A DNA stretch of 24,000 bases from Pyrinomonadaceae bacterium (GCA_035296445.1 DATHAZ010000149.1:48331-72330); one strand, 5' to 3'. Shown: positions 2,704 through 20,887, counted from the stretch's first letter. The notes: a model not told the origin generated them from the sequence alone. Program-made: numbers and translations.

Positions 2704-4068
2704 ATGATGCTCAGTGTTAATAGATTACTCGGCCGCCGCTCTCCGGCGGACGCCGACGCGGAAAGTTTATTTGAGAACGCTGACGGCGCGAAAAAATCAC
2801 CGTCCTCGATCTACCTCCGACTCATCGAGGATGAATCGCCCGGCCGGGAGGTGGGTAAGCGCTCGTTCGGCGTCCGGCTCGGCGCTGTGTTCGCGACATT
2901 GATGGTGGGGTTGTCGGCCGGAGCGTCAAATGTATTTGCCGAAGATGATGACGACCTGGCTGCTTCTCCTTCAAAAGCCGGCTCTCACGACGACGATGAC
3001 GACGTAGACAACACGGCGACGGGAACCGGAACGGGCGTTAACACGGCGACGGCCACCGCCACTGATCCGGGCACGAATGACGCGACCGGAACGAACACCG
3101 GCACGGGAGTGGCGACGGCAACCGGCACGGGGACGCTCAACGGTCGCACCGCCACCGGGACGGCAACCGGCACGGGAGGGGTGACGGCGACCAACACGGC
3201 GACCGCCACTAATCTTAAAACCGGCGACCGCACCGCCACCCAGACGGGAACGGGAACGGGCGTCAACACGGCGACAGCCACCGCGACCGCTACGGCCGCC
3301 GGTAATGGCCGCAGGGGCAACAAGGGCAAGCAGGCCGGCAAGAACAAGGGTGGTGATGATAATGACGGCACCGCCACCGGGACGGCAACCGCCACCGGCG
3401 TCAACACCGCGACCAACACCGGCACGGCCACCGACCCCCGCACACAGGACGCGACGGCGACCCGCACCGGCACAGCCACGGGTAACAACACGCTGACAGC
3501 CACCGCGACCAGAACGGCTACGGGCACCAAACTCACAGCCACGGACGGCACGGCCACCAACACGGCGACGGCGACCGGCGTCAATACCGCCACGAACACC
3601 GCCACCGCCACAGACCCGTTGACGCAGGATCGCACCGCGACAGCGACGGCGACCGGAACCGGAGGGGCGACCGGCACGGCCACAAACACGGGCACCGTGA
3701 CCGGCACCCGGACGGCGACCGGCAGGACGCGAACTGCCACGGCGACGGGTACGGGCGGGGTCACGGCCACCAACACGGCGACGGCCACTAACCCTCGGAC
3801 TGTTGACGCTACGGCGACCAACACGGCCACCGCGACGGGCGCACAGACTGCGACTAACACCGCGACCGCGACCGGCACGGCAAACGGCGGAACTGCAACC
3901 GGCACTGCCACTGCGACCGGCGACACTACGGCCACGAACACGGCGACCGCCACCAACCCGGCAACGCTGGATACGACCGGAACGGGAACGGGCACCAAAG
4001 ACACAAAAACGGGAACACGCACCAAGGACACAAAGACGGGAACCGCGACCGGGACGACCGCCGCATAG
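2704..4068 (+). CDS. Secreted or membrane-anchored Thr/Ala/Gly-rich repeat protein (alternating T-X-T-X)
   Basis: AGGGGG RBS at 2692-2697, 6 nt before the ATG. N-terminal hydrophobic signal/anchor (LGAVFATLMVGLSAGASNVFA) followed by acidic runs (EDDDD, HDDDDDVD). About 360 aa of TATNTATAT[DN]PxTxDxTAT-type modules follow. A strong hairpin terminator lies downstream. Confidence 0.7.
   Translation: MMLSVNRLLGRRSPADADAESLFENADGAKKSPSSIYLRLIEDESPGREVGKRSFGVRLGAVFATLMVGLSAGASNVFAEDDDDLAASPSKAGSHDDDDDVDNTATGTGTGVNTATATATDPGTNDATGTNTGTGVATATGTGTLNGRTATGTATGTGGVTATNTATATNLKTGDRTATQTGTGTGVNTATATATATAAGNGRRGNKGKQAGKNKGGDDNDGTATGTATATGVNTATNTGTATDPRTQDATATRTGTATGNNTLTATATRTATGTKLTATDGTATNTATATGVNTATNTATATDPLTQDRTATATATGTGGATGTATNTGTVTGTRTATGRTRTATATGTGGVTATNTATATNPRTVDATATNTATATGAQTATNTATATGTANGGTATGTATATGDTTATNTATATNPATLDTTGTGTGTKDTKTGTRTKDTKTGTATGTTAA
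3004..4062 (+). repeat. Imperfect in-frame tandem codon repeats (ACS-GCS/GGS-ACS) inside the Thr-rich gene
   Basis: Recurring DNA strings such as accaacacggcgacggcc / accgccaccg / ggcgtcaacaccgcgacc. At protein level GVNTATxTxTATDPxTxD occurs about 4 times and GGVTATNTATATN about 2 times. Confidence 0.75.
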
Positions 4069-4146
4069 TTAGGCGAGCGGAGAGCGCGGCCTCGCGCCCA
4101 TCCCTGAAAGTCGTCTCGCCTGCCGGATAGGAGTACAAGTGGAAAA

Positions 4147-4190
4147 GAGGAGGGGCAAGGAATCAACCTTGCCCCTCCTCCTCGTTTGTG
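4147..4190 (+). terminator. Rho-independent terminator-like hairpin after the Thr-rich gene
   Basis: Perfect 14-bp inverted repeat gaggaggggcaagg (4147-4160) / ccttgcccctcctc (4167-4180) with a 6-nt loop, followed by the T-containing tail ctcgtttgtg. Confidence 0.6.
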
Positions 4191-4342
4191 CGCCGGCGCT
4201 AGTGATAGTGCTCCCTCAGTAAGTGTCCTTACTACCTGGACAGGGTCTATAACCTCGCTCCGTTTATCGTAGACGGCGAGCGCGGACGCCGCCGGACAAC
4301 ACGAGAACGGGATCACGCTCTCTCGTAACCCGCCGCCGGCTA

Positions 4343-4462: not shown

Positions 4463-5230
4463 ATGAGTCAACACACATCTCCGCGATGCCTGGTCCTGGG
4501 CGGCGCGGGTTACGTCGGGTCGGCGGTATGCAGGTTGTTATATGAGTGCGGAGCACGCCTCGCGTTTACTTATCACACGGGTGGCGAGACGGCGAGAGTT
4601 TTGGCCGAAGAGTTGAAGGGCAGCTTTCCGCTCCACGCCGATCTGGCGAGTTACGCGGAGACGAGGCGCGTGGTTCGTGAGGCCGGCGGGCTGCTGGGCG
4701 GTCTCGATGCGTTGATCCAGTGTGCGGGCACGGCGGGCGATCCCACTCTCTATACAACCCGCCACGCGGACGATCACGGTAAGTTCCTGGCTATCACGGA
4801 GGCCGAGTGGGACGCGATGTTCGATGTCACCGTTCGCAGCACCTTCGCGGCGTGTCAGGAGGCGACGCTCTTGATGAGTCGGAATCAGAAGAACGGCGGC
4901 AGTATCGTCATCGTCGGCTCGATTGACGGCATCAAGCCTTTGCCCGCGCCCGTTCACTACGCAGCCGGCAAAGGTGCGCTGCGCTCCCTCACGGAAGCCT
5001 TAGCCAAAGAGTTGGGGCGAGACAACATCCGCGTCAATCTGGTCGCCCCCGGAATCCTCGAAGGCGGCATCGCGCGCCACCTGGAAGCGCGGCTGTTGCA
5101 GGATTATTTAGAGCACTGCGCTTTAAAGCGAGCGGGGAAGAGCGACGAAGTGGCCGAAGTTATCGTCCGGCTCGCACTGGATAACACTTACGTGACGGGT
5201 CAATCAATCGTGCTCGACGGGGGTTTGTAG
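4463..5230 (+). CDS. Short-chain dehydrogenase/reductase (FabG-like), SDR no. 1
   Basis: Rossmann motif LVLGGAGYVGSAV, catalytic YAAGKGAL, NIRVNLVAPG, C-terminal GQSIVLDGGL. GAGG RBS 5 nt upstream of the ATG. Confidence 0.85.
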   Translation: MSQHTSPRCLVLGGAGYVGSAVCRLLYECGARLAFTYHTGGETARVLAEELKGSFPLHADLASYAETRRVVREAGGLLGGLDALIQCAGTAGDPTLYTTRHADDHGKFLAITEAEWDAMFDVTVRSTFAACQEATLLMSRNQKNGGSIVIVGSIDGIKPLPAPVHYAAGKGALRSLTEALAKELGRDNIRVNLVAPGILEGGIARHLEARLLQDYLEHCALKRAGKSDEVAEVIVRLALDNTYVTGQSIVLDGGL

Positions 5231-5314
5231 CGAGCGCGGCGACCCGCCCGCGAGCCACGCCGAGCCTGAGACGGCACGCGCTCCGGGGCGGCGGGTTCGG
5301 ATAATTGATCGCCG

Positions 5315-5343
5315 TTGACTTGCCCTGTGCCCTTCCTTATAGT
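5315..5343 (+). promoter_or_regulatory. Near-consensus sigma70-type promoter upstream of the radical-SAM operon
   Basis: TTGACT (5315-5320), exactly 17-nt spacer, TATAGT (5338-5343). It lies about 125 nt upstream of the ATG at 5467. Confidence 0.45.
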
Positions 5344-5466
5344 GTAGCCCGAATTGACGGCGCAGACTTCTCGGGGCGTAGTTCATTCAGCCCGTCTAAC
5401 AAGGGTTTAAGAACCGCCTGCCAGCCACCTCCAGACAAGTTCTTTCGCGCGCAGGAGAAACCCCGG

Positions 5467-6987
5467 ATGCCTACTAACCCCCGCGGAACCCGCCCTTATA
5501 CTTTTTACAAGATGACGCAGAGCACCTGCCCCGAATGCCTGAAAGTGGTGCAGGCGCAGGTCGTCTTCGAGGACAACAAAGTATTCTTCCTTAAGCACTG
5601 CCGCGAACATGGACACAGCAAAGCTCTGGTGAGCGAAGACGCGGAGTACTATCAGAACGCGTTCTCGTTCAGCCGGCCGGGCAGCGTCCCTTTGCAGTTC
5701 TCGACCGAGGTTAAAGAGGGGTGTCCGACCGATTGCGGTCTGTGCCCGTCTCATCAACAGCACACCTGTCTGCCGATCATCGAGGTCACGGACTACTGTA
5801 ATCTTGAGTGTCCGGTCTGCATCGTCAACAACCAGTATTCCAACCACATGTCGCTCGGCGATTTTCAAGAGATCATTGATCTGCTTGTGCGCCACGAGGG
5901 AGTGCTCGACACCGTCACACTGAGCGGCGGCGAGCCGACTTCGCACCCGCAGTTCTGGGAGTTGATTGACATCGCCACGCGCCCCGAGGTCGGGCGCGTC
6001 TCCGTCGTCACGAACGGCATACGCATCGCCCGCTCGAAAGAGTTCTGCGCGCGCCTCAAAGAAAAAAACGTCTACGTGATCCTCCAGTTTGACGGCTTCA
6101 CCGACGATGTGCAGAAAGCGATCCGCGGCGTTGACCTGATGGAGACGAAACACAGGGCGCTCGAACACCTCGGCGAATTCAACATCTCGACGCAGATCGC
6201 TTTCGTCCCGGCGCGCGGGGTGAACGAGCATCAGTTGGGAGACGCCGTGCGGCTGCTGCTCGAACGCGACCACATTCTGTCGCTCCTGATCCAGCCGTTC
6301 GCTGCCACGGGGCACGGCGGCGGCGTCTTTCCGCACGACCCTTTGGATCGCCTGACGACGCCGGGCGTCATCCGTGCCATTGACGAACAGACCGCCGGCC
6401 TCGTCGCGCGCGAAGACTTCATCCCGCTTCCCTGCTCGCACCCGCTCTGCGTTTCGCTGACCTACCTGCTCAAGCTCGACGACGGGAGCTATCTCCCTTT
6501 CCCGCGCTTCGTGGACATGCGCCGCCACCTCGACCTGTTCCAGCAGACGGCGACCCTCGAAGCGAACGAGCAGACGGAGGATGCGCTGCAAGGTGTGATC
6601 GGCGACTTGTGGAGCACCGCCGGTGAGATACCCGACAGCCAGAAGGTCATCAAAGCGCTCAGGCGCGCCCTGCTGGAGATGTTCCCCAACAAAAAAGTTG
6701 ACCGCCGTGAACTCATCCGCATCACGGAAAGGCAGGCCAAGACGATCTTCATCCACCACTACATGGACAGACACGACTTCGACATCGAGCGTCTGATGAA
6801 GTGCTGTCACCACTACCCGCAAGTTGACGGGCGGATCATGCCCGCGTGCGGATTCAACATGTTCCATCGCGGCGCGGCGAAAGGAGCCGGGACGCAGACT
6901 CCGCCGTGGGGGAAAGGGCCGTTCATCAAAGATGATTCGCCCGAACTCAAACTCTACGCAATCGGCCGCGAGCGCAACGTCACGTGA
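5467..6987 (+). CDS. Radical SAM enzyme, COG1964 / tetraether-lipid-synthase (Tes, GDGT-MAS)-like architecture, paralog 1
   Basis: AGGAG RBS at 5453-5457, 9 nt before the ATG; the listed start at 5305 is an upstream extension. N-terminal knuckle CPEC...x19...CREHG, second Cys motif GCPTDCGLCPSH, radical-SAM CNLECPVC (CX3CX2C), SAM-binding LSGGEPTSHP, C-terminal PCSHPLC and KCC...PAC motifs. Clear paralog of 11941-13431. Confidence 0.8.
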   Translation: MPTNPRGTRPYTFYKMTQSTCPECLKVVQAQVVFEDNKVFFLKHCREHGHSKALVSEDAEYYQNAFSFSRPGSVPLQFSTEVKEGCPTDCGLCPSHQQHTCLPIIEVTDYCNLECPVCIVNNQYSNHMSLGDFQEIIDLLVRHEGVLDTVTLSGGEPTSHPQFWELIDIATRPEVGRVSVVTNGIRIARSKEFCARLKEKNVYVILQFDGFTDDVQKAIRGVDLMETKHRALEHLGEFNISTQIAFVPARGVNEHQLGDAVRLLLERDHILSLLIQPFAATGHGGGVFPHDPLDRLTTPGVIRAIDEQTAGLVAREDFIPLPCSHPLCVSLTYLLKLDDGSYLPFPRFVDMRRHLDLFQQTATLEANEQTEDALQGVIGDLWSTAGEIPDSQKVIKALRRALLEMFPNKKVDRRELIRITERQAKTIFIHHYMDRHDFDIERLMKCCHHYPQVDGRIMPACGFNMFHRGAAKGAGTQTPPWGKGPFIKDDSPELKLYAIGRERNVT

Positions 6988-7041: not shown

Positions 7042-8421
7042 ATGAGCAGCCAGCCCGCCACGCCGCATCTCTCGATCTCAAAATACGCGCGCCACGTCAA
7101 CCCCCAGTTCGTCAAACTGCTCGGCGTTTTCGGTTACGGGCGCGTGTTCGAGCGAGCGAGCGACGTGTGGGTGTGGGATCAACAGGGGCGTCTGTATCTG
7201 GACTTCCTCGCCGGTTTCGGGTCGGTCAACGTCGGCCATAATCACCCTCGTCTCGTGGCGCGCCTCCGAGATTTTCTCGCCGCCGAAAGAATGAACTTCT
7301 GCCACGTCGCGCCCTGCGCCGAGGCGGCGGAGTTGGCGGAGGCTTTAGCCGGGGCGGCGGGGACGCCTCTGCGGGTCTCTCTTTTTTCCAACAGCGGAGC
7401 GGAAGCCGTCGAAGCCGGGATGAAGCTGGCGCGAGCGGCGACCGGGCGCAAAGGATTCGTCTATTGCCAACACGGCTTCCACGGCACGACCCTCGGCACG
7501 CTCTCCGTCATGGGCGGCGAGCGTCTGCGCCAGCCCTTCGAGCCTTTGTTAAATGACTGCGACGCCATCCCGTTCGGAGATTTAGACGCGCTCAATCGTG
7601 CGCTGGCGCGCGGGCGTGTGGCGGGCTTCATCGTCGAACCCGTCCAGGGCGAAGGCGGTGTGGTCACGCCTCCGCAAGGTTACTTGAAGGAGGCGCAGGC
7701 ATTATGCCGCCGGCACGGGACGCTCCTCATCCTCGACGAAGTGCAGACGGGGCTGGGGAGAACCGGGACGATGTTCGCCTACGAGGCGGAAGGCTTCACC
7801 CCGGATGTGCTGGTCTTAGCGAAGTCGTTGAGCGGGGGCGTCGCGCCCATCGGCGCGACGCTGATTTCCGAGGATACGTTCGACCGCGCTTACGGCTCAC
7901 TCGCGCGGTTTGATCTGCACGGTTCGACGTTCGGCGGCAATGCGTTCTCGTGCGTCGCCGCGCTGGAGACCCTGCGGATCATCGCCGACGAGAATTTAGT
8001 CGCGGCTGCTGCTGCGCGCGGCGCACAGTTGTTGGCGGGTCTGCGCGAAAAACTTGCAGGCCACCCGCTCGTGCGCGACATACGCGGGCGCGGTTTGTTA
8101 GTGGGCATCGAACTCGGCCCGACCGACTCGGGCTGGATCAACAAAGTCGCGCCGTCGCTGGTGAATCTCGTGTCGAAGAATGTGTTCGGGCAATGGGCGG
8201 CGCTCAAGTTGCTGGAGCGCGGGTTGATCTGCCAACCGGCCTCGCAGGCTTGGAACATCCTGCGGCTGGAGCCGCCATTGACGGTGCGGGAGGCGGAGGT
8301 GGACGCGGCCGTCGAGATGGTGGCCGGCGCTCTGGGGGAGTATCGAGGCATGTCGCCGCTGTTAAAGGATGTCGCCGAGCGTCTGGGCGGACAGTGGCGG
8401 AAAGGTTGGGCGTTTGAATGA
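7042..8421 (+). CDS. Class-III (PLP-dependent) aminotransferase
   Basis: FLAGFGSVNVGHNHP, SNSGAEAVEAGMKLAR, LILDEVQTGLGRTGTMFAYE, and PLP-lysine context VLAKSLSGG. These are typical of the acetylornithine/GABA/ornithine-oxoacid aminotransferase family. Confidence 0.85.
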   Translation: MSSQPATPHLSISKYARHVNPQFVKLLGVFGYGRVFERASDVWVWDQQGRLYLDFLAGFGSVNVGHNHPRLVARLRDFLAAERMNFCHVAPCAEAAELAEALAGAAGTPLRVSLFSNSGAEAVEAGMKLARAATGRKGFVYCQHGFHGTTLGTLSVMGGERLRQPFEPLLNDCDAIPFGDLDALNRALARGRVAGFIVEPVQGEGGVVTPPQGYLKEAQALCRRHGTLLILDEVQTGLGRTGTMFAYEAEGFTPDVLVLAKSLSGGVAPIGATLISEDTFDRAYGSLARFDLHGSTFGGNAFSCVAALETLRIIADENLVAAAAARGAQLLAGLREKLAGHPLVRDIRGRGLLVGIELGPTDSGWINKVAPSLVNLVSKNVFGQWAALKLLERGLICQPASQAWNILRLEPPLTVREAEVDAAVEMVAGALGEYRGMSPLLKDVAERLGGQWRKGWAFE

Positions 8422-9452
8422 ATCTCTCGGAGTTGAGGCGCGACCTCCGGTTCACCACCAATCTGTTGCTGCGTCGCCCGTTCGACGTGCTGGTGCAGGT
8501 CACGAACCGCTGCAACATGAAGTGCAGCTTTTGTGACTTCTGGCCGCACGGCGCGACGGCGCGCGAGGAGTTGCAGGTTGCCGAATACCGGCGCGTGGCC
8601 TCGGAACTGGCGTCGCTCGGCTGCTTCATCGTATCCGTGGAAGGCGGCGAGCCGTTCGTGCGTCCAGACCTCGTGGAGATCGTCGGGGCATTCGCCGAGC
8701 GTGGACACCTGCCGGTCGTTTATACCAACGGCTGGTACGCGGACGCCGACAAGGCGCGCGCTCTGTTCGCCGCCGGACTGACGCAGGTCGGCATCTCCAT
8801 AGACTACCCGGAGGCGCGGCGTCACGACGCCAAACGCGGACTGGACGGAGCGTTCGCGCGCGCATGGGAGGCCGTCGAGGCTTTCCGCGAGGCCGCGCCA
8901 CACGGCGGAAGACAAGTACACGTGATGACCGTTCTGATGAAAGATAACCAGCGCGACATCGAAGAGTTGTTGCGTTTGAGCGCGCGCCGCCGCGTCGGGC
9001 ACTACGTCACCCTGCTCTCGACGGCCGGCTTCCGGCGTGGCCGCAGTAGTAGTAGCGCCGACCGTGCGCCGGAGGGGGCATTCGCAGACGAGTTGCTCGC
9101 GCTGCGACGCCGCTACAAACATTTTCGCGCGCCGAGCGATTACCTGCGGCTGGCCGCCTCCTACGCCGACGGCGGCGCGATGCCGACCTGTCGCGCCGGA
9201 GTACAGACCTTCAACATAGATCATCTGGGCAACGTCTCGGCCTGCATCGAGCGCATAGACAAGCCCGTGGGAAACGTCCGCGAAGAACATCTCGTCAGCC
9301 TGCACGCGAAGCTGCAAGGCGATGAAGAGCGTGCGGAAGTCGGAAGCTGCCAGAAGTGCTGTACGATCTGCCGGGGGATGGGGCAGACGTTCGGCGCGGG
9401 CGGGTCTCTGCGCGGCTGGTGGGAGTTGGCGACGCGTATGAGGTCACATTGA
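8418..9452 (+). CDS. Radical SAM enzyme with C-terminal SPASM/twitch-like Cys cluster
   Basis: VTNRCNMKCSFCDFW (CX3CX2C), VEGGEPF glycine motif. The C-terminus has CRAGVQTFNIDHLGNVSAC (GX4C) and CQKCCTICRG. The start overlaps the aminotransferase stop (ATGA at 8418-8421). Confidence 0.8.
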   Translation: MNLSELRRDLRFTTNLLLRRPFDVLVQVTNRCNMKCSFCDFWPHGATAREELQVAEYRRVASELASLGCFIVSVEGGEPFVRPDLVEIVGAFAERGHLPVVYTNGWYADADKARALFAAGLTQVGISIDYPEARRHDAKRGLDGAFARAWEAVEAFREAAPHGGRQVHVMTVLMKDNQRDIEELLRLSARRRVGHYVTLLSTAGFRRGRSSSSADRAPEGAFADELLALRRRYKHFRAPSDYLRLAASYADGGAMPTCRAGVQTFNIDHLGNVSACIERIDKPVGNVREEHLVSLHAKLQGDEERAEVGSCQKCCTICRGMGQTFGAGGSLRGWWELATRMRSH

Positions 9453-9463: not shown

Positions 9464-10216
9464 ATGTTGCTGCTGCGGCCACTGTTAAAAGACAAACGCG
9501 TGCTCGTGACGGGCGGGTCGCGCGGTCTGGGACGCGCCTTCTGTGAACGCTTCGCCGCGGAGGGCGCGCACGTCGCCTTCAACTACACGAGCGACGAGAG
9601 CGGCGCGCGCGAAACCCTCGGCCGCGTCGAGACGAGCGGGCAGAGGGCGCTCGCCTTCAGGGCGTCGGTGCTCGACTACGCCGCCCTCGAACAGATGGTC
9701 AGAGAGATCGAGAGCGCATGGGGCGGCATAGACGTTCTGGTTAACAACGCCGGAATAAGTCAGCCACTGCCGTTGGCGTTGATGGAGGAGGAGGACTGGG
9801 ACGCGGTGATGGACACGAACGCGAAGGGGCAGTTTCTCGCTGCGCGCGCGGTGTTGCGGGGCATGATTCGGCGTAAGGGCGGATGTATGCTCAATATCGG
9901 CTCACTGGCCGGGGTGCGCCTGATCGAAGCGCCGATTCATTACTGCGCCAGTAAGGCCGCGGTCAAGGGCTTCACGGAGGCGCTGTCTAAGGAGGTGGCG
10001 CGCTATAATATTCGCGTCAACTGTCTCGCGCCGGGGTTGCTCGATGACGGCGTCTCACAGAATCTACCCGAGTACCGGGTGGAGGAGTTTCTCAAACACG
10101 TCTCGCTGCACCGCAAAGGCACTCTGGAGGAGGTCGCGAGGTTCGCCGCCTTCCTCATCTCCGACAGGAACAGCTACATGAACGGCGCGACGGTCGTGAT
10201 AGATGGCGGCCTGTGA
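9464..10216 (+). CDS. Short-chain dehydrogenase/reductase (FabG-like), SDR no. 2
   Basis: GGGGAG RBS at 9455-9460 followed by the ATG at 9464. VLVTGGSRGLGRAF, NNAG, YCASKAAVKG, NIRVNCLAPG. The listed start at 9356 would overlap the previous gene by ~100 nt and adds non-SDR sequence. Confidence 0.85.
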   Translation: MLLLRPLLKDKRVLVTGGSRGLGRAFCERFAAEGAHVAFNYTSDESGARETLGRVETSGQRALAFRASVLDYAALEQMVREIESAWGGIDVLVNNAGISQPLPLALMEEEDWDAVMDTNAKGQFLAARAVLRGMIRRKGGCMLNIGSLAGVRLIEAPIHYCASKAAVKGFTEALSKEVARYNIRVNCLAPGLLDDGVSQNLPEYRVEEFLKHVSLHRKGTLEEVARFAAFLISDRNSYMNGATVVIDGGL

Positions 10217-10251: not shown

Positions 10252-11385
10252 ATGGTCGCAACCGCGTACCAGTCAAATCTCTTCGGGTGGATCGTCAGCC
10301 GACGTTATGACACGGCGTTCATCTTCGGCGGGGCGGCGGCGAGTTTGTGCGCGCCGTTGCTGGTCTGGTGGTACCCCGCCCTTTTATCTCCGCTGTTCTG
10401 GCTCTGGCTGTTCCTCTTCGACGGCACCCACAGTTGGGCTACTTACAGCCGCACCTACGCCGACCCGCAGTTCCGCAGAGAGAACCGTCGGCTCTTGTTC
10501 GGCAGTCTTGTCTTGTTCATCCCGGCGGCGGCGGCCATCTATTTATGGCAGGCCAGCGGCTCGCTCGCGCCCGTTTATCTGTTTCTGTTCATCGCGCAGT
10601 GGTGGAGTTATCACCACATCGTCAGGCAGCACTACGGGTTCGCTTCGATCTACGACCGCAAGGCGCGCGCCGACAGTACTTCTCACCAAGTCACCAAGTG
10701 GACTCTCTATCTTGGATTGTGGCTTCCTTACCTTTATTTCCTCCTGACGCACCCGCTGAATCGCCGGATCATGAGCGGCTCGCTCGACGGCGCGGCAGAC
10801 CTCCCGCCGGTCAATTACGGGTGGGTTGACACGCTGCTCGGATACGGCGCGCCAGCCCTCTCCGTCGCCCTCCTGCTCGGCCTCGTCGCGTACCACGTCC
10901 GGCGGTGGGGCGGTCTTCGGCAGAGATTTGAACTCAGCCCGGCGCTCGTCTTCACAGCGGCGTGCGTGCTGTTGTATTCCGTGATCTTTTACGTCATCGC
11001 GCCGCTTGAGCCGCTGCTGCCCGGCGCGCGCACGCCCGTGCAGAGCTTCATGCTCATGCAGGTCATGATCACGCTGTTTCACAACATCCAGTATCACGCC
11101 GTCGTGTGGCATTACAACCGTAACCGTCCGAGCCGCGCGCGTCTCAACCGTAACTTCTTCATCTACGCTCTGGCCGCAATGATCTTCTCTATCGGCTACG
11201 TCGCCGCCGCATGGTACACTACCGAATATCCGTCATGGCAGGGAACGATCCCGGAAAACATACTCGTCCCGGCGGCGTTCTGCGCGTGGTGGGGGTTGTC
11301 GCTGCACCATTACTACCTCGATCAGAAGATATGGCGCGTCAGCAAAACGCAGGAACTGCAACGCCATTTCGGCGTCACGGCCTGA
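10252..11385 (+). CDS. Polytopic integral membrane protein with four His clusters (family not recognised; possible membrane metallo-enzyme)
   Basis: About 8-9 hydrophobic segments. His clusters FDGTHSW, WWSYHHIVRQHYGF, LFHNIQYHAVVWHYN and LSLHHYYLDQKIWR lie at predicted helix ends. Confidence 0.6.
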   Translation: MVATAYQSNLFGWIVSRRYDTAFIFGGAAASLCAPLLVWWYPALLSPLFWLWLFLFDGTHSWATYSRTYADPQFRRENRRLLFGSLVLFIPAAAAIYLWQASGSLAPVYLFLFIAQWWSYHHIVRQHYGFASIYDRKARADSTSHQVTKWTLYLGLWLPYLYFLLTHPLNRRIMSGSLDGAADLPPVNYGWVDTLLGYGAPALSVALLLGLVAYHVRRWGGLRQRFELSPALVFTAACVLLYSVIFYVIAPLEPLLPGARTPVQSFMLMQVMITLFHNIQYHAVVWHYNRNRPSRARLNRNFFIYALAAMIFSIGYVAAAWYTTEYPSWQGTIPENILVPAAFCAWWGLSLHHYYLDQKIWRVSKTQELQRHFGVTA

Positions 11386-11975
11386 CGCCGTCCCTGCGCG
11401 CTCTGGGCGTGGTGCCCCTGGCTTTCTTCGTTCTTCATGCCCGTTACCACATCGGGCAGGGCACGGGCGGACATCTCCTGTGGGTGTGTACGGTCTCGAA
11501 CCTGCTGCTGGCGGCCGGCCTTTTTCTGGACTTGCCGATGTTGATCCGCGTCGCCGTCATGTGGCTCGTCACGGGACTGCCCCTCTGGGCGTGGGACATG
11601 TTTGAGCAGGGTATCGCGCCGGTCTCAAGTTTCCTCACACACTTCGGCGGTCTGGCGGTCGGGCTTATCGGTCTTTCCAGAGTGCGTGCCGCGCGCGGCC
11701 TCTGGGTCTGTGCTTTCATCTGGTATCTCACCTTGCAGCTCGCGGCGCGCCTGCTCACGCGCCCGGAGTTGAACGTCAACCTCGCACACGACATGCACGG
11801 CGGTTGGCGCGATTTATTCAACTCCTACTGGAGGTTCTCGGTCTTCATGAGTCTGGTAGTAGCCGTAGCCCTCTGGCTGACCGGGCTGGTAACGCTGAAA
11901 CTCTTTCCCCCGTCGGTGAATCATCCGAAGCGAGGTGCTTATGACGGCGACGACATCAGCCCGCAAACTGCATGA
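11331..11975 (+). CDS. Small polytopic membrane protein (unknown function)
   Basis: Five to six hydrophobic helices (VVPLAFFVLHA, LLWVCTVSNLLLAAGLFL, VAVMWLVTGLPLWAW, FGGLAVGLIGL, LWVCAFIWYLTLQLAA, FSVFMSLVVAVALWLTGLV). The start is uncertain: ATG 11331 overlaps the upstream gene by 55 nt, and GTG 11409/11412 are alternatives. The 3' end overlaps the next gene by ~35 nt. Confidence 0.5.
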   Translation: MARQQNAGTATPFRRHGLTPSLRALGVVPLAFFVLHARYHIGQGTGGHLLWVCTVSNLLLAAGLFLDLPMLIRVAVMWLVTGLPLWAWDMFEQGIAPVSSFLTHFGGLAVGLIGLSRVRAARGLWVCAFIWYLTLQLAARLLTRPELNVNLAHDMHGGWRDLFNSYWRFSVFMSLVVAVALWLTGLVTLKLFPPSVNHPKRGAYDGDDISPQTA

Positions 11976-13431
11976 CACGACGAGCCTCTGCGCCACCTGC
12001 AAGCGCGGCATCGAGGCGTCGTTGTGGGAGCGGGACGGCCGGATTTCCATGCGCAAGGCATGCCCCGAACACGGCGCGAGCGAGGTCTTGATCTCTTCGG
12101 ACGCCGCCTGGTATCACGAAACGCTGAACTATGCGGCGCGGACGATCCAGCCCCCGTTCGTCAAGAATGCGGTGGACAGGGGCTGTCCCTTCGACTGCGG
12201 CGCATGCGAGGCACACGAGCAGAAGTCATACCTCCCGGTCATCCCCATCACGAGCGCGTGCAACCTTGATTGTCCGGTCTGCTATACGATCAACAAGAAT
12301 GAGGATGCGTTCCACATCTCGCTCGAAGAGTTCGCGGCTATCCTCGATGTCGTGCGCCGCAACGATCCGGGGCTGAAGATAATCAACCTGACGGGCGGCG
12401 AGCCGACACTTCACCCCCAATTGACGAAGATCGTAGAGATGTGTCACGCAGCCGGAATCCACCGCGTCACCATCAGCACGCACGGATTGACCTTCATCAA
12501 CAACGAAGCGTTGCTCGACGAACTGGCCGTCCTCGGCGCGCGCATCGTCCTCTCTTTCAACTCTTTCGACGAGGCGGTCAACTATCGCATGGTCGGCGCG
12601 AGGGCGGCGAAGGGTAAGTTGAAAGTCCTCGAAAAGCTGGCGCGGCACAACGTAGACACGACGCTCATCCCGGTGCTGGCCGTCGGCTACAACGACCGGG
12701 AGATCGGCGATCTCGTGAACCTCGCGCTCTCTCAAGACTTCATCCGCAGTCTGGAAATTCACACGATGACCTTCACGGGTCAGAGCGGCACAGACTTCGA
12801 CCCCGCAGCGCGCCTGACCACGCCCGACGTGCTGCGCCGGATCGAAGAGCAGACCGGCGGCCGCATCCGCATGGGCGACTTCGTGCCCTCGCCGTGCGCC
12901 CACCCGCTCTGTTATCAAACCTGCTACCTGCTCCAGACGCCTGCGAGCGGCTTCATCCCCTTCACACGGTTCATGTCTAAGGAGACGATCCGCCAACTGC
13001 TGACGGACAACCTTTACATGGAGCCCGGCCCGCTCATGGAGTCCGCATTGCAGGACGTAGCCATGCAGTTGTGGGCGTCGGAGTTGGACGACGAGACGGG
13101 GGAAGCCGTCCTGACGACGCTCAAGAACTTAATCAAGCGCCTCTTCCCGGCCGTGCCTCTGCCTTACCACGAGCGGCAGATAATCGCCGAGCGCGCCGCC
13201 AAGACGATCTACATACACTCGCACATGGATGAGGAGAATTTCGACACCGACCGCATCCGTCAATGCTGCGTGGGCGTGCCCTCGGCCGACGGCGGCAACG
13301 TGCCGACGTGCGCCTACAACATCCTATACCGCGAGCGCGACTCGCGATTTTCGGCCAGAGACAGCGCGCCGCTCTCCACCTACGCCGGCGGGCGCAAAGA
13401 GCTGGTGCAGATCAGGCGTCCGGGCAGGTGA
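11941..13431 (+). CDS. Radical SAM enzyme, COG1964 / Tes(GDGT-MAS)-like architecture, paralog 2
   Basis: CATC...x19...CPEHG knuckle, GCPFDCGACEAH, CNLDCPVC, LTGGEPTLHP, PCAHPLC, AKTIYIHSHMDEENFD, QCC...PTC. It is collinear with 5467-6987 in every motif. The start is ATG 11941 or GTG 11935. Confidence 0.8.
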   Translation: MTATTSARKLHDTTSLCATCKRGIEASLWERDGRISMRKACPEHGASEVLISSDAAWYHETLNYAARTIQPPFVKNAVDRGCPFDCGACEAHEQKSYLPVIPITSACNLDCPVCYTINKNEDAFHISLEEFAAILDVVRRNDPGLKIINLTGGEPTLHPQLTKIVEMCHAAGIHRVTISTHGLTFINNEALLDELAVLGARIVLSFNSFDEAVNYRMVGARAAKGKLKVLEKLARHNVDTTLIPVLAVGYNDREIGDLVNLALSQDFIRSLEIHTMTFTGQSGTDFDPAARLTTPDVLRRIEEQTGGRIRMGDFVPSPCAHPLCYQTCYLLQTPASGFIPFTRFMSKETIRQLLTDNLYMEPGPLMESALQDVAMQLWASELDDETGEAVLTTLKNLIKRLFPAVPLPYHERQIIAERAAKTIYIHSHMDEENFDTDRIRQCCVGVPSADGGNVPTCAYNILYRERDSRFSARDSAPLSTYAGGRKELVQIRRPGR

Positions 13432-13433: not shown

Positions 13434-13910
13434 ATGCGATTCTTTCTGGTTGACCGCGTGGATGAATTGAAGCCGGGGGAGATGATCCGCGGCGTCAAGA
13501 ACGTGACGCTCAGCGAAGACTTTTTGCAGGATCACTTCCCTTCCCATCCCCTCTTTCCCGGCACATTAATGATCGAGGCGTTGGCGCAGTTGGGCGGATG
13601 CCTCGTCGAGGCCACCTTCAATACCAGCGACGACAACGTCAGGCGCGCGGTGCTCGCGCAGGTTGACCGCGCCAGATTTCACGAGGCCGTGAGGCCGGGC
13701 GATCAACTGAAGATAGTGTGCCGCCTTGTCTCGATGCTCGAAGGCGCGGCGCAGGTTAAGGGCGAAGCCAGCGTGGGCGAACGCGAGGTCGCCCGCGCGA
13801 CGCTGCTCTTCGCGCTGCGCGCCGTGGGGTCGGAACGGATACACCGGCAGCGGAGGGAAATTTACGAGATATGGACGCGCCACTTGAATCTGGACTTCAC
13901 GCTCCGCTAG
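13434..13910 (+). CDS. FabZ/FabA-like 3-hydroxyacyl-ACP dehydratase (hot-dog fold)
   Basis: MRFFLVDRV..., then the signature HFPSHPLFPGTLMIEALAQLGG. The ATG lies 2 nt after the stop of the upstream radical-SAM gene. Confidence 0.8.
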   Translation: MRFFLVDRVDELKPGEMIRGVKNVTLSEDFLQDHFPSHPLFPGTLMIEALAQLGGCLVEATFNTSDDNVRRAVLAQVDRARFHEAVRPGDQLKIVCRLVSMLEGAAQVKGEASVGEREVARATLLFALRAVGSERIHRQRREIYEIWTRHLNLDFTLR

Positions 13911-14812
13911 TTGTCACCGGAGTCGGCTCTCTCGTGCTCGCGCCCGCGCGGGCGGGCGAAGAAGACCCGTCCGTTGACGCCGCGCGCGAAGTCGCGCCGT
14001 GGCTCAAGTCGAAGAAGATGCGCAAGTTCATGGGCAAACAGGATCAACTCGCGGTGGCCGCCGCCGGCCGCGCCGCGAAAGACGCCGCCCTCGACGAGCG
14101 AACCTTGCGTGAACGCACCGGGCTTTACCTGTGCGTCGGTCATATCCCCTTCGAGCGCGCACAGATTGAAGCGATAGCCCGCGGCTCGATTCAAGCGGAC
14201 GAGTTTTGCATGGAGCGGTTTTCCACCACGGCCTTCGAGCGCGTCAACCCTCTGCTCACGTTTCGCTGTCTGCCGAACATGCCCGCCTTCCACGTCTCGC
14301 TCAACCTCGGGATGCGCGGGCCATACTTCGTCACCTACCCTTGCGCGGGACAGTTCTACCTCGCGCTTGAGTGCGCGACGGCCGCACTGGAAAGCGGCGA
14401 GGTTGATGTCGCGCTCGTGGGAGCGGTCGCCGACCAGAACAATTTTCTCGTCGCATACCATTTCCGCCGAACGTCGGATTCGCGAAAACTGACCGCTTGG
14501 GAAGGCATAGACGCGGGCGCGTTCCTGTGTCTGGAGACACGGGACGGGGCGAGGCGACGCAATGCAGAGGTCAAGGCCGAACTGCTCTCGTCGGAGGTTA
14601 GCTACGCCGCGCCGGACTCGTGGGGCGAGTCGCGGCCATTCGCGGAGTCGGTCACTTTCGCGGGCGTGAAAACGGTGGCCGCGAAGCCTACGGCGGCCTC
14701 GCTTCCCGTGAGCCTGAGCCATGCCGCAGGCGGCGCGGGCAAGGGCGAGTTCGTCCATCAACTGTCCACGGCGGGCGGCGTCGAGGCGACGAGCCGTTGG
14801 AGGGTCGTGTGA
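13871..14812 (+). CDS. Truncated beta-ketoacyl synthase-like protein (chain-length-factor-like KS partner)
   Basis: KS N-terminal-like LVVTGVGS, RKFMGKQDQLAV (compare RKMDxF in FabF), LPNMPAFHVSLNLGMRGPYF, and the YPCAGQ segment at the active-site position. It is only 313 aa and lacks a recognisable HGTGT/HGTST His motif. It overlaps the FabZ-like gene by 40 nt and ends in a GTGA overlap with the KS. Confidence 0.65.
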   Translation: MDAPLESGLHAPLVVTGVGSLVLAPARAGEEDPSVDAAREVAPWLKSKKMRKFMGKQDQLAVAAAGRAAKDAALDERTLRERTGLYLCVGHIPFERAQIEAIARGSIQADEFCMERFSTTAFERVNPLLTFRCLPNMPAFHVSLNLGMRGPYFVTYPCAGQFYLALECATAALESGEVDVALVGAVADQNNFLVAYHFRRTSDSRKLTAWEGIDAGAFLCLETRDGARRRNAEVKAELLSSEVSYAAPDSWGESRPFAESVTFAGVKTVAAKPTAASLPVSLSHAAGGAGKGEFVHQLSTAGGVEATSRWRVV

Positions 14813-16053
14813 GTCGCCGTAGACGCGTCGTTATCACAGGCGTCGGCATTGTCTCCCCGCTCGGCCACGAGTTGACCGAGTTTCGCCGCAACCTTCTCTC
14901 CGGCCTATCGGCGGCCGCGCCGATCACCGTGTTCGACCCCGCGCGCCTTCCGACCAGAATCGCGGCGCAGGTGGATGCGTCGTCTCTGCCGACTCAAACC
15001 AGGGATCGCAAAATAGCTTTCGGCCTCGCCGCGACGCGTGCGGCCATCGCCGACGCGGACGGCGGCGATGCCCTGCCCGTGGCGGAATACTACGCCGGAA
15101 CGGGCGGCGGGCTGAGTCTCGGCATCGGACTCGAACTTTTCTCGATGCCCGACATGGTGAAGTTTCTTGAGCGCGAAGAAATTCCGGCGGGCGTCCATGC
15201 GCAGACGTTTTTGCAGACGCCTTCGGACGTGTGCGCCCACTTGATCTGCCGCGAGCACGACTTCTTGCGCGCTCCGCCACTCGTCCACGTCTCCGCATGT
15301 GCGGCGGCGACCGACGCCATTGGCACAGCCTTTCGCATGATCCGCGACGGCAGGCGCAGGTGGATGCTGGCCGGAGGCGCGGATTCCATGATCAACCCGA
15401 TGGGCGTCGGAGGATTTTGCGCCATCGAAGCGACCACGCGCCGCAACCACGAGCCGCGACGCGCATCGCGCCCGTTCGACCGTGACCGCGACGGGTTTCT
15501 ACTGGGAGAAGGCGCGGGGCTGCTCGTGCTCGAAACGCTCGACGATGCACAGGCCAGGGGCGCGCGCATCTACGGCGAGGTGTCGGGCTATGGGAATTCG
15601 TTCGATGCCTACGGCATCAGCGAGCCGCACCCGGAAGGCGAAGGCGCGCTCCTCGCAATGCAACGCGCTCTCGCGGATGCCGGATTGCATCCCGAAGACA
15701 TCTCTTACATCAATGCCCATGGGACATCCACGCCGAAGAACGACGTGGTTGAGACGCGCGCGATTCGCCGCCTGCTCGGTCGCCACGCGGAGCGCGTGCC
15801 CGTCAGTTCGACCAAGTCCATGATCGGCCATCTCATTTCCGCCGCCGGGGCGGTCGAACTGGCCGCCGCCATCCTCTGCGCTGAGACCGGCTGGGTGCAT
15901 CCGACGATCAACCTCGAACGCCCCGACCCCGCCTGTGATCTGGATTACGTCGCGGAGGGCGCGCGCCGGGTGAAGGTGGAAACGATTCTCAAGAACTCAT
16001 TCGCATTCGGGGGGCAGAACGCATCTCTGGTGATACGGATGGCGGGATGTTGA
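14809..16053 (+). CDS. Beta-ketoacyl-ACP synthase II-like (FabF-type KS)
   Basis: GTG start at 14809 overlapping the upstream stop (GTGA). RVVITGVGIVSPLG, active-site HVSACAAATDAIG, RPFDRDRDGFLLGEGAGLLVLE, NAHGTSTPKND, SSTKSMIGHLISAAG, NSFAFGGQNASLV. Confidence 0.9.
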   Translation: MSRRRRVVITGVGIVSPLGHELTEFRRNLLSGLSAAAPITVFDPARLPTRIAAQVDASSLPTQTRDRKIAFGLAATRAAIADADGGDALPVAEYYAGTGGGLSLGIGLELFSMPDMVKFLEREEIPAGVHAQTFLQTPSDVCAHLICREHDFLRAPPLVHVSACAAATDAIGTAFRMIRDGRRRWMLAGGADSMINPMGVGGFCAIEATTRRNHEPRRASRPFDRDRDGFLLGEGAGLLVLETLDDAQARGARIYGEVSGYGNSFDAYGISEPHPEGEGALLAMQRALADAGLHPEDISYINAHGTSTPKNDVVETRAIRRLLGRHAERVPVSSTKSMIGHLISAAGAVELAAAILCAETGWVHPTINLERPDPACDLDYVAEGARRVKVETILKNSFAFGGQNASLVIRMAGC

Positions 16054-16793
16054 GCGGGAAAACCATCGTCGTCACGGGCGCGGCGGGCGGTATCGGGCGC
16101 GCGATTGCGCTGGCGTGCGCGAGAGAAGGCGCGAGCGTGGGCGTCAACTATTTGACGAACTGCGCCGGGGCGGAAAAACTCGTTGACGAATTGAACCGTG
16201 CCTCCGAAGGCCGCGCCTTCGCCTTGCGGTTCGACGTGCGGAAACCCGACTCGATCACCGCCGCGTGTCTCCCGCTGCTCGAAGAGGTCAAGCGCGTAGA
16301 CGGGTGGGTCAATAACGCCGGCGTTAACTTACCGGGCTTATTGATGTCCCAAACCGAAGAGATGATCGAAGAACAGATCGCGGTCAACATCAAAGGCGCG
16401 ATCTACTGTAGCCGTTTCATCCTGCCCTACATGGTGCGGCAGCGGCGCGGCGCTCTGATCAACATCGGGTCGGTGGTCAGCATGCGACCCTCGCCGGGGC
16501 AGGCTGTCTACGCAGCCACGAAAGGCGCGCTCGCCGCGTTGACACGCGCTCTGGCCGCGGAGTACGGACGGAAGGGCATACGCGTCAACTGCGTGGAGCC
16601 CGGCCCCGTCGAAACGAAGATGTTCGGGGGCACGCGGCAACTGGCGGGCGATGAGGTAAAAAATCGAATCCCGTTACGGAAATTTGGCGCGCCCGGAGAG
16701 GTGGCCGAGTTGGTGGCCTTCCTGCTCTCGGAACGCGCCTCCTTCATCACAGGCGGCGTCTTCGCGGCCGACGGCGGTTACTCCGTCGGGTGA
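16047..16793 (+). CDS. 3-oxoacyl-ACP reductase-like SDR (FabG-type), SDR no. 3
   Basis: The ATG overlaps the KS stop (ATGTTGA). IVVTGAAGGIGRAI, NNAG, YAATKGALAALTRALA, IRVNCVEPGPV. Confidence 0.9.
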   Translation: MLSGKTIVVTGAAGGIGRAIALACAREGASVGVNYLTNCAGAEKLVDELNRASEGRAFALRFDVRKPDSITAACLPLLEEVKRVDGWVNNAGVNLPGLLMSQTEEMIEEQIAVNIKGAIYCSRFILPYMVRQRRGALINIGSVVSMRPSPGQAVYAATKGALAALTRALAAEYGRKGIRVNCVEPGPVETKMFGGTRQLAGDEVKNRIPLRKFGAPGEVAELVAFLLSERASFITGGVFAADGGYSVG

Positions 16794-16836: not shown

Positions 16837-17256
16837 ATGATTGAAAGAGATGAAATCTTCCGCGTCGTGCGCGGCTGCGTCGGCAAAAGCCTTGAGATTG
16901 ACGAAGAGGATGTGAAACTCGATTCACGCCTGATCAGCGAACTGGGGGCGGACTCCCTCGACTTTCTCGACATCGTCTTCAGGCTCGAAGAGAGTTTTGG
17001 GCTTAAGCTGCGCAACGCCGAACTGGATGTGCTGACCCGTGCGGAATTCACCGGCGCAACGAACGAGGACGGTTACATCCCGGCCGAAACCGTGGCGCAA
17101 TTTCGTCAATGGCTGCCCGCGCTCAGACTCGCGGAGCGCGACGACCGCATCAGCCCGCGTGACATCTACTCTTACATCACGACGGAGACGCTGGTGATCC
17201 TGATTGAACGGAAACTCGCCGAATCGGGCGGCGTTCAGAGTTCAACCGACCAGTAA
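16837..17256 (+). CDS. Acyl carrier protein with ~60-aa C-terminal extension
   Basis: Phosphopantetheine attachment motif LGADSLDFLDIVFRLEE. The protein is 139 aa from ATG 16837, whereas canonical ACPs are about 80 aa. Confidence 0.8.
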   Translation: MIERDEIFRVVRGCVGKSLEIDEEDVKLDSRLISELGADSLDFLDIVFRLEESFGLKLRNAELDVLTRAEFTGATNEDGYIPAETVAQFRQWLPALRLAERDDRISPRDIYSYITTETLVILIERKLAESGGVQSSTDQ

Positions 17257-18222
17257 GACTTTACCGCGCCGTCCGGGTCTTTCCGCATGCCGCACGGCTT
17301 CGACGACCTCCTTCAGTTCGTACTCGGCCTCGACCGGCGGCACGACCCTGCCGTTTGCCATGAGACCCAGTAGTTCGCCCCCGATCTTTCTCTGTTCCTC
17401 TACGGGCGTCCTCCTGAACCAATCGTCGAGCCAGAAACCACGGATGCTGGTGGAGCGGAAAATCATCCTCCCGGTATTGAGCGGCATGTGTTCCAACGAG
17501 AGTAAGCCATAAACCAGCATCGTCCCTCCCCGGCCGAGGACGCTCGCGACTTTGCCGCCGACCTTCCCGCCGACGGCGTCAATGGCCGCGCGCACGCCGG
17601 CTTGATTAGTGATGGACATCACCCGCTCAACTAACGATTCGTCCTCCGTGCAAATGACCTCATCCGCACCCAACTCTTTGAGTTCCTCGACCTGTTCGCG
17701 GCGGCGCACGACGTTAATCGTCTTGAAGCCGCGCAGCGCGGAGAGTTGCAGCACGATGCGCCCCAAAGTCGAGCCGGCCGCGGTTTGCAGCAGCCAATCT
17801 CCGGGACGCAACGCCAACTCCTCGGTCGTCATCACCCATGCCGTGAGAGGATTGACAACGAATTGCGCGGCGGTTGAATCGTTAATCGCGTCCGGGCACA
17901 AAATGACTTTGTTGCTCTGCGCGAGGAGGTATTCCTGCCAGGTGCCCGCAACGCCGATGGGAATCACCCGTTGACCGACGTGAAACTCTTCCACATCCGC
18001 CCCGATCTCCTCGATCACCCCGACTCCTTCGACTCCGGGCGAAGCAGGCAGCCTCGGCAGGACACCGTAAAGGCCGCGCACCGTTAACAGGTCGGAAGGG
18101 TTAACGGCACGCGCCCTCATGCGTATCAGCATCTGCCCCCGTCCTGACTCCGGCACGGGCAACTCCTCGATCTTTAATACTTCCGCCGGTTCCCCGAATT
18201 TATCAAACCTCACGCTCCGCAT
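17242..18222 (-). CDS. MDR-family enoyl reductase, MECR/Etr1-like (NADPH:quinone-oxidoreductase superfamily)
   Basis: N-terminal VNPSDLLTVRGLYGVLPRLPASPGVEGVGVIEEIG resembles the 2-enoyl-thioester reductase (MECR/Etr1) signature. Nucleotide-binding AAGSTLGRIVLQL. Its 3' end overlaps the ACP 3' end by 15 nt in convergent orientation. Confidence 0.75.
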   Translation of the reverse strand: MRSVRFDKFGEPAEVLKIEELPVPESGRGQMLIRMRARAVNPSDLLTVRGLYGVLPRLPASPGVEGVGVIEEIGADVEEFHVGQRVIPIGVAGTWQEYLLAQSNKVILCPDAINDSTAAQFVVNPLTAWVMTTEELALRPGDWLLQTAAGSTLGRIVLQLSALRGFKTINVVRRREQVEELKELGADEVICTEDESLVERVMSITNQAGVRAAIDAVGGKVGGKVASVLGRGGTMLVYGLLSLEHMPLNTGRMIFRSTSIRGFWLDDWFRRTPVEEQRKIGGELLGLMANGRVVPPVEAEYELKEVVEAVRHAERPGRRGKVLLVG

Positions 18223-20785: not shown

Positions 20786-20887
20786 CAAATGTGACATTCT
20801 GTATTGAAGGAATCGCTGAACCGCTTTACAGTGTGCCACCATCCGCCTCAATTTGTAACGCTCAACGCCATAAGGAGGAAAGTTCAA

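Follow-up and report, generated by a model that had tools for sequence, protein, structure and literature searches.

What might an aminotransferase do when it is translationally coupled to a radical S-adenosylmethionine (SAM) enzyme inside a cluster of fatty-acid-type genes? The question is raised by a stretch of 24,000 nucleotides (nt) of DNA from a Pyrinomonadaceae bacterium (GCA_035296445.1, DATHAZ010000149.1:48331-72330), hereafter the window, to whose positions all coordinates refer and in which all cluster genes lie on the + strand. In it, a class-III aminotransferase of 459 amino acids (aa), here called AT1 (7042..8421), runs into a small radical SAM enzyme of 344 aa, here called rSAM (8418..9452), each opening with an ATG. 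The rSAM sequence is 100% identical to a protein in a metagenome-assembled genome of Pyrinomonadaceae, which places the window in Acidobacteriota. An initial annotation of the locus had read these two, together with the short-chain dehydrogenase/reductase (SDR) that follows them, as a device that oxidises and then aminates a lipid carbon. We found the pairing of AT1 and rSAM conserved across phyla, and we tentatively favour, at somewhat less than an even chance, a model in which both enzymes act on a chain built by fatty acid synthase (FAS)- or polyketide synthase (PKS)-like enzymes to give a nitrogen-bearing lipid or alkaloid.

Conservation of the aminotransferase-radical SAM pair

Read directly from the sequence, the AT1 stop and the rSAM start share the ATGA at 8418..8421, with the ATG of rSAM at 8418-8420 and the TGA of AT1 at 8419-8421 (gtttgaATGAatctc; in a longer reading that shows the same overlap, TTTGAATGAATC), exact to the base with the overlap first described. 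The rSAM stop codon TGA occupies 9450-9452, and 9464 is where the SDR frame has its next ATG, confirming the 11-nt spacer reported before SDR_b, a FabG-like ketoreductase (9464..10216; Pfam adh_short, 184 bits); within this spacer stands a Shine-Dalgarno-like motif, GGGGAG.

An ATGA overlap of 4 nt is ordinary in operons, and a single case says little. A pattern scan in which each GTDB species was represented by a single genome found rSAM relatives in at least 154 species-level genomes from at least seven phyla; 80 loci were fetched from the 154 genomes, and the cluster proteins of the window were run against them by tblastn. The carriers include Acidobacteriota, many Myxococcota, Burkholderiales, Planctomycetota, Rokubacteria, Vulcanimicrobiota and Turneriella, and those in culture include Massilia rubra (CCM 8692), M. 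aquatica, M. frigida (CCM 8695), M. mucilaginosa and M. atriviolacea as well as strain GR16-43 (Burkholderiales). Of the 71 loci with sufficient upstream sequence, at least 56 had AT1 directly upstream of rSAM in the same orientation, a lower bound since the strict gap threshold missed a few adjacent AT1 genes. A 4-nt NTGA overlap was retained in 35 of 64 species-level AT1-rSAM pairs and an overlap of any length in 48, the remainder being no more than 41 nt apart. Moreover, the identities of AT1 and of rSAM to the window proteins co-varied across loci (Pearson r = 0.78, Spearman p = 3e-14), and in a collection of 5.8 billion proteins the best AT1 homologues shared contigs with the best rSAM homologues. 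Adjacency, overlap retention and identity co-variation across loci make AT1-rSAM, by the evidence of sequence comparison, a genuine co-inherited and translationally coupled unit; the initial annotation had noted the coupling in one genome.

The SDR did not share this constancy. Of 61 loci, only 13 had an SDR directly downstream of rSAM, and 19 had a FabZ-like gene there, so that the triad of aminotransferase, rSAM and SDR is not a fixed unit. In five loci (L011, L015, L020, L057 and L058), hosted by Archangiaceae/Hyalangium and two other Myxococcota, the pair was alone, with no other cluster gene within 3-10 kb; AT1-rSAM is therefore separable from the FAS genes, and no SDR accompanies it there within that distance. 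No flanking open reading frame (ORF) common to these five stand-alone loci was found. A homologue of mem2, a small membrane protein of the window cluster, still lies near the pair in L057 and L058. In the Hyalangium locus (L011) the neighbours of the pair are an RHS-repeat protein, a DUF6081 protein and a styrene-monooxygenase-like gene, all unrelated to the cluster.

AT1 and the small radical SAM enzyme

AT1 matches the class-III aminotransferase profile almost end to end (Aminotran_3, PF00202, 313.3 bits where 30.5 is the cut-off; residues 35-430 correspond to profile positions 12-402 of 403). Its catalytic lysine lies in LAKSLSGG, aligned with LSKSLSGG of PigE and LAKALGGG of YgjG, so that the Schiff-base site is intact, as is the Asp motif that binds pyridoxal 5'-phosphate (PLP), ILDEVQTG (DEVQTG). 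PigE, which transaminates the fatty aldehyde 3-acetyloctanal in prodigiosin biosynthesis, is, through its aminotransferase domain, the nearest relative both in the PDB (4ppm, E = 5e-97, ~50% identity over 363 residues) and in NCBIfam (NF053554), where it scores 466 bits and no ArgD model more than 321. The score of 466 bits nevertheless falls below the PigE equivalog cut-off of 850, and only profile positions 378-756 are matched. AT1 is thus PigE-like but not a PigE, because the N-terminal domain of PigE is absent from it, and no characterised member of its subfamily was found.

The surroundings of AT1 and its scores bear on a more prosaic reading, in which a putrescine or ornithine aminotransferase of ordinary polyamine or amino-acid catabolism has landed in a lipid operon by chance. 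Many AT1 homologues carry the automatic JGI label 'putrescine aminotransferase', and the second-best PDB match of AT1 is the putrescine aminotransferase YgjG. The putrescine aminotransferase model, however, gives 308 bits against a cut-off of 612 (NF008570), the ArgD and ornithine models also stay below theirs, and AT1 falls under every curated NCBIfam cut-off for ArgD, ornithine, putrescine, γ-aminobutyrate, diaminobutyrate and BioA aminotransferases (NF002874, 321 against 457 bits; TIGR00707, 310 against 410; TIGR01885, 277 against 378). Its conserved neighbours are rSAM, the Tes-like enzymes and the ketosynthase, chain-length-factor and carrier-protein genes described below, with no polyamine genes among them. 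A place in primary metabolism was rejected on both the cut-offs and the genomic context, and we regard the catabolic reading as scarcely credible.

Past the class-III fold AT1 continues for 28 residues (431-458; 8332-8418), and among 119 homologues this tail shows strong conservation: Y434 and Q451 are present in 100%, D443, R447 and F458 in at least 97%, and W456 in 86%. It is largely absent from PigE and absent from AT2, the optional second aminotransferase of the cluster, which is also PigE-like, is flanked by two SDRs and, at 427-439 aa, ends directly after the fold. As judged from these alignments the tail is specific to the rSAM-linked aminotransferase, and it may be a docking element for rSAM or for the acyl carrier protein (ACP).

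Since the tail is encoded right at the junction, it can also be read as a target. On that account rSAM would be a maturase, modifying AT1 (for example in its tail), the ACP or a peptide of the ribosomally synthesised and post-translationally modified (RiPP-like) kind, instead of a lipid. Strict 1:1 adjacency, the co-variation of identities and the stand-alone pairs of some genomes would all suit such a role; many enzymes with SPASM or twitch domains are maturases, and the NCBIfam matches of rSAM include WgkB, StsB and a W-cofactor maturase. In the window, however, a precursor gene would not fit between the genes, which are separated by 54 nt, an overlap and 11 nt; the stand-alone loci have no conserved small flanking ORF, and a crosslink motif of conserved Cys, Ser or Thr is absent from the tail. 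Class-III aminotransferases are, moreover, not known to require maturation. We consider a maturase role very improbable.

rSAM itself belongs to the radical SAM superfamily (PF04055, 85.3 bits against a cut-off of 29.5). The cysteines of its CX3CX2C motif, which bind the SAM cluster (C32-x3-C36-x2-C39), are invariant in 81 homologues of about 57-90% identity. Five further cysteines are invariant in the same set, C258, C276, C311, C314 and C318, with the spacing C258-x17-(G271-x4-)C276 ... C311-x2-C314-x3-C318, and thus candidate ligands for an auxiliary cluster are there on alignment. Neither of the outcomes that the initial annotation had named as speaking against its reading, an aminotransferase of primary metabolism in an unconserved triad or an rSAM lacking such ligands, was observed. 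The class to which it had assigned them, SPASM/twitch, stood in part. A full SPASM domain has seven to eight cysteines and two auxiliary clusters, and a twitch domain has one auxiliary cluster. rSAM scores 17.5 bits with the SPASM profile (PF13186, cut-off 21.5) and lacks the canonical seven-cysteine motif CX9-15GX4C...CX2CX5CX3C...C, its later motif being CX2CX3C; about half of its homologues bear a precomputed PF13186 label. For the C-terminal region, one auxiliary cluster of the twitch type, or else a SPASM domain in partial form, would be the best reading, and SPASM as such was overstated (five cysteines against seven to eight). In BtrN, the auxiliary ligands follow a Cys...Cys...CxxC pattern, which the spacing in rSAM appears to resemble.

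The AlphaFold2 model of rSAM (pLDDT 93.5, pTM 0.92) has among its Foldseek neighbours BlsE, SkfB, MoaA, SuiB, CteB, PqqE, DesII, BtrN and anSME, at TM-scores of ~0.45-0.66 and identities of 14-22%. BlsE, SkfB and MoaA are the top matches (TM ~0.6), BtrN ranks 21st and anSME 23rd. Invariant polar residues of the family are R31, R82, H97, D129, H136, R140, H168, R206, R207, Y242, D268, H269, E278 and R319, and H195 is nearly invariant (at least 90% of the same homologues); together they may indicate that the substrate offers a handle of anionic or polar character.

The surrounding cluster and its Tes-like enzymes

Around the pair, a conserved cluster of 13-16 genes comprises one to three radical SAM enzymes resembling Tes/GDGT-MAS, two SDRs, AT1-rSAM, two membrane proteins and a set of ketosynthase (KS), chain length factor (CLF), dehydratase (DH), ketoreductase (KR) and ACP genes. 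Among the 34 fully flanked loci, those extending 9 kb or more to either side, a Tes-like radical SAM gene occurred in 28, KS/CLF genes in 24 and an SDR in 27. Independent gene calls and precomputed Pfam labels gave a like content for a Burkholderiales metagenome-assembled genome, for Haliangium and for several metagenome contigs. The boundaries are clearest in L090, a clean operon of 16 genes between unrelated genes, in the order TesL-TesL-unknown-SDR-AT2-SDR-mem2-AT1-rSAM-DH-CLF-KS-KR-nitroreductase-ACP. In Massilia atriviolacea SOD (NZ_CP051166, about 3,040,050-3,061,057) the order is DH-KS-CLF-KS-CLF-KR-nitroreductase-ACP-mem1-AT1-rSAM-SDR-AT2-SDR...TesL. No publication on this gene cluster was found in a full-text literature search.

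Accessory genes vary. Among the 80 loci, those with a homologue numbered 35 for the ACP, 33 for the nitroreductase, 32 for mem2, 24 for a 273-aa protein, 16 for an MprF-type LPG_synthase_TM protein, about 10 for an ABC transporter and seven for a flavin adenine dinucleotide (FAD) oxidoreductase. MprF flips cationic aminoacyl lipids, and by analogy the LPG_synthase_TM gene of 16 of the 80 loci would fit a cationic membrane lipid. Burkholderiales versions of the cluster (L001/L036, L029 and others; L092) gain an SDR-AT2-SDR module, and the same versions also gain LPG_synthase_TM, nitroreductase-family and 273-aa protein genes, the last of which sits right after rSAM.

The two Tes-like enzymes of the window, TesL1 (5305..6987, with a probable true start at the ATG at 5467) and TesL2 (11935..13431), are paralogues, each with a Zn_ribbon_HMPTM and a Radical_SAM domain in Pfam, the zinc ribbon of TesL1 being N-terminal, and both align to GDGT-MAS over nearly their full length. 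Residues 13-470 of TesL1 align to the GDGT-MAS structure 7tol with E = 2.7e-69 and with all Cys motifs conserved. Against the NCBIfam Tes model (NF045702, cut-off 450) TesL1 reaches 268 bits and TesL2 255; both also match the TrsS model, TesL1 with 277 bits, likewise below the cut-off. TrsS belongs to an unrelated organometallic selenoprotein neighbourhood.

Tes homologues carry weight well beyond this locus. Zeng et al. (2022) catalogued 456 in bacteria and proposed for them an experimentally untested role in the synthesis of brGDGTs, tetraethers of the branched glycerol dialkyl glycerol type (PMC8941075); as the proposed long-sought brGDGT synthases, they are used in the interpretation of metagenomes (PMC8941075). 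TesL1 and TesL2 would count as 'bacterial Tes homologues' in such brGDGT surveys despite lying in a cluster that contains an aminotransferase. That Tes-like genes accompany the AT1-rSAM pair, the most conserved core of the cluster, in 28 of the 34 fully flanked loci implies that bacterial Tes homologues include a sizeable subset making something other than brGDGTs, probably a product with nitrogen in it.

In the window the fatty-acid-type cluster is a single operon from SDR_a at 4463 to the ACP at 17256, as delimited by ORF calls and Pfam/NCBIfam matches. Its first gene, SDR_a (4463..5230), encodes a divergent FabG-like SDR (Pfam adh_short_C2, 155 bits) with homologues in most related loci. 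After TesL1, AT1, rSAM and SDR_b come the membrane proteins mem1 and mem2 and TesL2, followed by a FabZ/ApeI-like DH (13434..13910; Pfam FabA, 74 bits; NCBIfam FabZ, 117 bits), whose homologues bear the precomputed label PF22818, ApeI-like. A CLF-like half-ketosynthase (13871..14812) matches only the N-terminal domain of Pfam ketoacyl-synt (46 bits), and the KS beside it (14797..16053, start approximate) has both ketoacyl-synt and Ketoacyl-synt_C. The operon closes with the KR SDR_c (16047..16793; adh_short_C2, 208 bits) and the ACP (16852..17256, start approximate; PP-binding, 36 bits), a homologue of the ACP of the Massilia cluster. With discrete KS, CLF-like partner, DH, KR and ACP within one operon the system is type-II FAS/PKS-like, and the fatty-acid-type surroundings described at the outset were borne out. 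The window represents a compact version of 13 genes, without the nitroreductase, 273-aa protein and LPG_synthase_TM genes.

The score of SDR_b with the FabG subfamily in NCBIfam (221.6 bits against a cut-off of 222) makes it a near-FabG ketoreductase and not obviously an oxidising partner of rSAM.

mem1 (10252..11385) is a polytopic membrane protein with no Pfam or NCBIfam match, and in the Massilia and Haliangium loci it often lies directly upstream of AT1. Its invariant residues are H60, H122, H127, H277, H353, D20, D71 and D357; the AlphaFold2 model (pLDDT 91.7) is all-helical with about 11 helices, and a Foldseek search against the PDB found no solved structure with a similar fold (best E = 0.19). 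A membrane enzyme that is metal-dependent and of a new kind is one possibility for mem1. Distant mem1 homologues occur in unrelated contexts. The smaller membrane protein mem2 (about 11331..11975), with no Pfam or NCBIfam match, is homologous to a 184-aa ORF in L001.

Three further features of the window lie outside the operon. Convergent to the ACP gene and abutting it, a zinc-alcohol dehydrogenase/quinone-oxidoreductase gene of the medium-chain dehydrogenase/reductase (MDR) type (17242-18222, - strand) is conserved in no relative but the closest one from Pyrinomonadaceae (L008), and may be an enoyl reductase that replaces the nitroreductase-family gene of other clusters. Upstream, a 454-aa ORF at 2704-4068 consists nearly entirely of Thr/Ala/Gly/Asn repeats (TATGTGT..., NTATATN...), in a region with an extreme AT skew of 0.66 and 70% GC and with an equally long antisense ORF at 2985-4316; either a surface protein of low complexity or a repeat without coding function could account for it. 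Downstream of the cluster, at ~20000-24000, GC falls from ~0.60-0.65 to 0.46-0.53, which may mark the point where DNA of another character, perhaps gained by horizontal transfer, begins.

Proposed chemistry and comparison with known systems

From the gene identities, family placements, intact catalytic motifs and conservation of pair and cluster observed above, we infer a substrate, an order of steps, a radical chemistry and a product. The KS/CLF system would build an ACP-bound acyl or polyene chain; AT1, as a PLP-dependent enzyme of the PigE type, whose members use fatty aldehydes and ketones, would turn a carbonyl of that chain into an amine; and rSAM, with one auxiliary Fe-S cluster, would do its radical chemistry on that carbon too, most likely an anaerobic two-electron oxidation in the manner of BtrN or anSME, from C-OH to a C=O that AT1 consumes. 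This role is favoured because it supplies the substrate of AT1 and the cysteine pattern fits; the presence among the structural neighbours of rSAM of two enzymes partnered with aminotransferases, BtrN and DesII, was also counted for the model. The Tes-like enzymes would then join C-C bonds at unactivated alkyl carbons, and the product, a lipid or alkaloid that bears nitrogen, would be associated with the membrane and possibly bipolar. The amino-lipid product suggested in the initial annotation is plausible.

Several points weigh against this reading. The analogy with BtrN, put forward in the initial annotation, holds as far as a weak match of the core domain, but that match is marginal (E = 5e-4, residues 24-123 only) and the structural likeness distant (TM ~0.45-0.6); searches of NCBIfam, Foldseek and the literature found no characterised enzyme close to rSAM. 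The best full-length profile matches are instead NirJ2 (105 bits, where 500 is the cut-off), AhbD, NirJ, AhbC and MftC, and the chemistry of NirJ2 and MftC is C-C cleavage and decarboxylation. The conserved Arg and His residues (R82, R140, R206, R207, H97, H136, H168 and H195) suggest an anionic substrate, which might be a carboxylate or phosphopantetheine/ACP and would differ from a plain hydrocarbon. L090 contains no thioesterase, ligase or reductase domain, and no aldehyde-releasing enzyme was found there. The three SDRs of the cluster could make or reduce carbonyls, so that the need for a radical dehydrogenase is not obvious, and aminotransferases are reversible, so that AT1 might remove nitrogen instead of installing it.

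Part of this evidence would sit more comfortably with an rSAM of the NirJ/AhbD/BlsE/MftC type, a radical decarboxylase or C-C lyase that trims a carboxylate intermediate and so yields the aldehyde or ketone used by AT1. The NirJ2 alignment spans residues 27-320, the top structural match, BlsE, is a decarboxylase, the invariant Arg/His set would suit a carboxylate, and a chain-releasing thioesterase or reductase is absent from the operon. Every score, however, lies far under its family cut-off, 105 against 500 in the best case, and genes for a tetrapyrrole or peptide substrate are lacking; such a role is speculative, and we think it improbable.

The order of the two genes raises another alternative, modelled on DesI/DesII. 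Here AT1 would aminate a keto group first, after which rSAM would abstract an adjacent hydrogen and eliminate or migrate the amine; the pair would be a device for deoxygenation or carbonyl transposition, and the final product might not retain the nitrogen introduced by AT1. A pairing of aminotransferase and radical SAM enzyme is established in desosamine biosynthesis, DesII ranks tenth among the structural neighbours of rSAM (E = 4e-11), and the aminotransferase gene comes first, translationally coupled to that of rSAM. Yet the likeness to DesII is slight (TM only ~0.44-0.6, identity ~16%), DesII is not known as a twitch or SPASM enzyme, and the second PigE-like aminotransferase of many clusters, flanked by SDRs and without an rSAM, better matches genuine amine installation. 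We judge this sequence of events improbable as well.

Amination of a chain carbonyl by AT1, with rSAM as its oxidising partner, accordingly remains our working model, and it can be taken one step further. In a bolder form, which we regard as unlikely as a whole, AT1-rSAM would be a new device for the net amination of lipid carbons that, with the Tes-like enzymes, gives widespread bipolar amino lipids or macrocyclic alkaloids. Starting from an alcohol or by way of C-C cleavage, the twitch-type rSAM would make a carbonyl on a chain bound to the ACP or to the membrane, and this carbonyl would be passed directly to a docked AT1, with the C-terminal tail as the docking element; among soil Acidobacteriota, Myxococcota, Planctomycetota and Burkholderiales, products of this class would be widespread. 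If this is true, brGDGT synthesis is not what many 'bacterial Tes homologues' do. From a positive result one would gain a radical SAM reaction and a partnership of aminotransferase and radical SAM enzyme that are both new, and possibly a new lipid class, and the cultured, genetically approachable Massilia carriers make both the product and the chemistry of rSAM directly testable.

Comparison with characterised systems places each part of the cluster but not the whole. PigE, of the pathway to 2-methyl-3-amylpyrrole in prodigiosin biosynthesis, resembles AT1 in its catalytic domain (~50% identity) and in the Lys and PLP motifs; it is, however, a two-domain protein of ~837 aa whose N-terminal domain of ~370 aa has no counterpart in AT1, whereas AT1 has its unique conserved tail and an obligatory rSAM neighbour, and no PigD or PigB genes are present. 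In Pseudomonas koreensis, the koreenceine cluster (kec) combines the aminotransferase-reductase KecF with a type-II PKS that has two KS-CLF pairs, and makes tetrahydropyridine alkaloids (PMC6498172). It is similar in its type-II KS/CLF/ACP/KR set and in an aminotransferase that places nitrogen on the chain, and the Massilia cluster likewise has two KS-CLF pairs; it differs in that a reductase domain of KecF itself releases the aldehyde and in the absence of radical SAM and Tes-like genes.

For the order of events in our model the closest precedent is 2-deoxystreptamine biosynthesis, in which the twitch enzyme BtrN, working with BtrS/BtrR, oxidises C-OH to C=O and transamination follows. BtrN has a single auxiliary cluster with a Cys...Cys...CxxC arrangement similar to C258, C276, C311 and C314 of rSAM, but it is a protein of 250 aa acting on an aminocyclitol, and its partner aminotransferase is of the DegT type, unlike the class-III AT1. 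A radical SAM enzyme and a class-III aminotransferase also cooperate, in HpnH/HpnO, to give an amino-lipid, but the window contains no hopanoid genes; membership of rSAM in that system was rejected, HpnH lying outside its 25 best NCBIfam matches, the weakest of which has 52.8 bits. Tes/GDGT-MAS (7tol) shares with TesL1 and TesL2 the zinc ribbon, the motifs GCPxDCGLCPxH and CNLxCPxC and a C-terminal CC..HY...P.C; Tes acts on isoprenoid ether lipids, whereas TesL1 and TesL2 stand in a bacterial, ACP-based aminotransferase cluster. None of PigE, kec, BtrN/BtrS, DesI/DesII and Tes/GDGT-MAS shows the combination seen here, and the cluster would thus be a type-II FAS/PKS-like amine-installing system extended by an uncharacterised family of radical SAM enzymes and by Tes-like enzymes.

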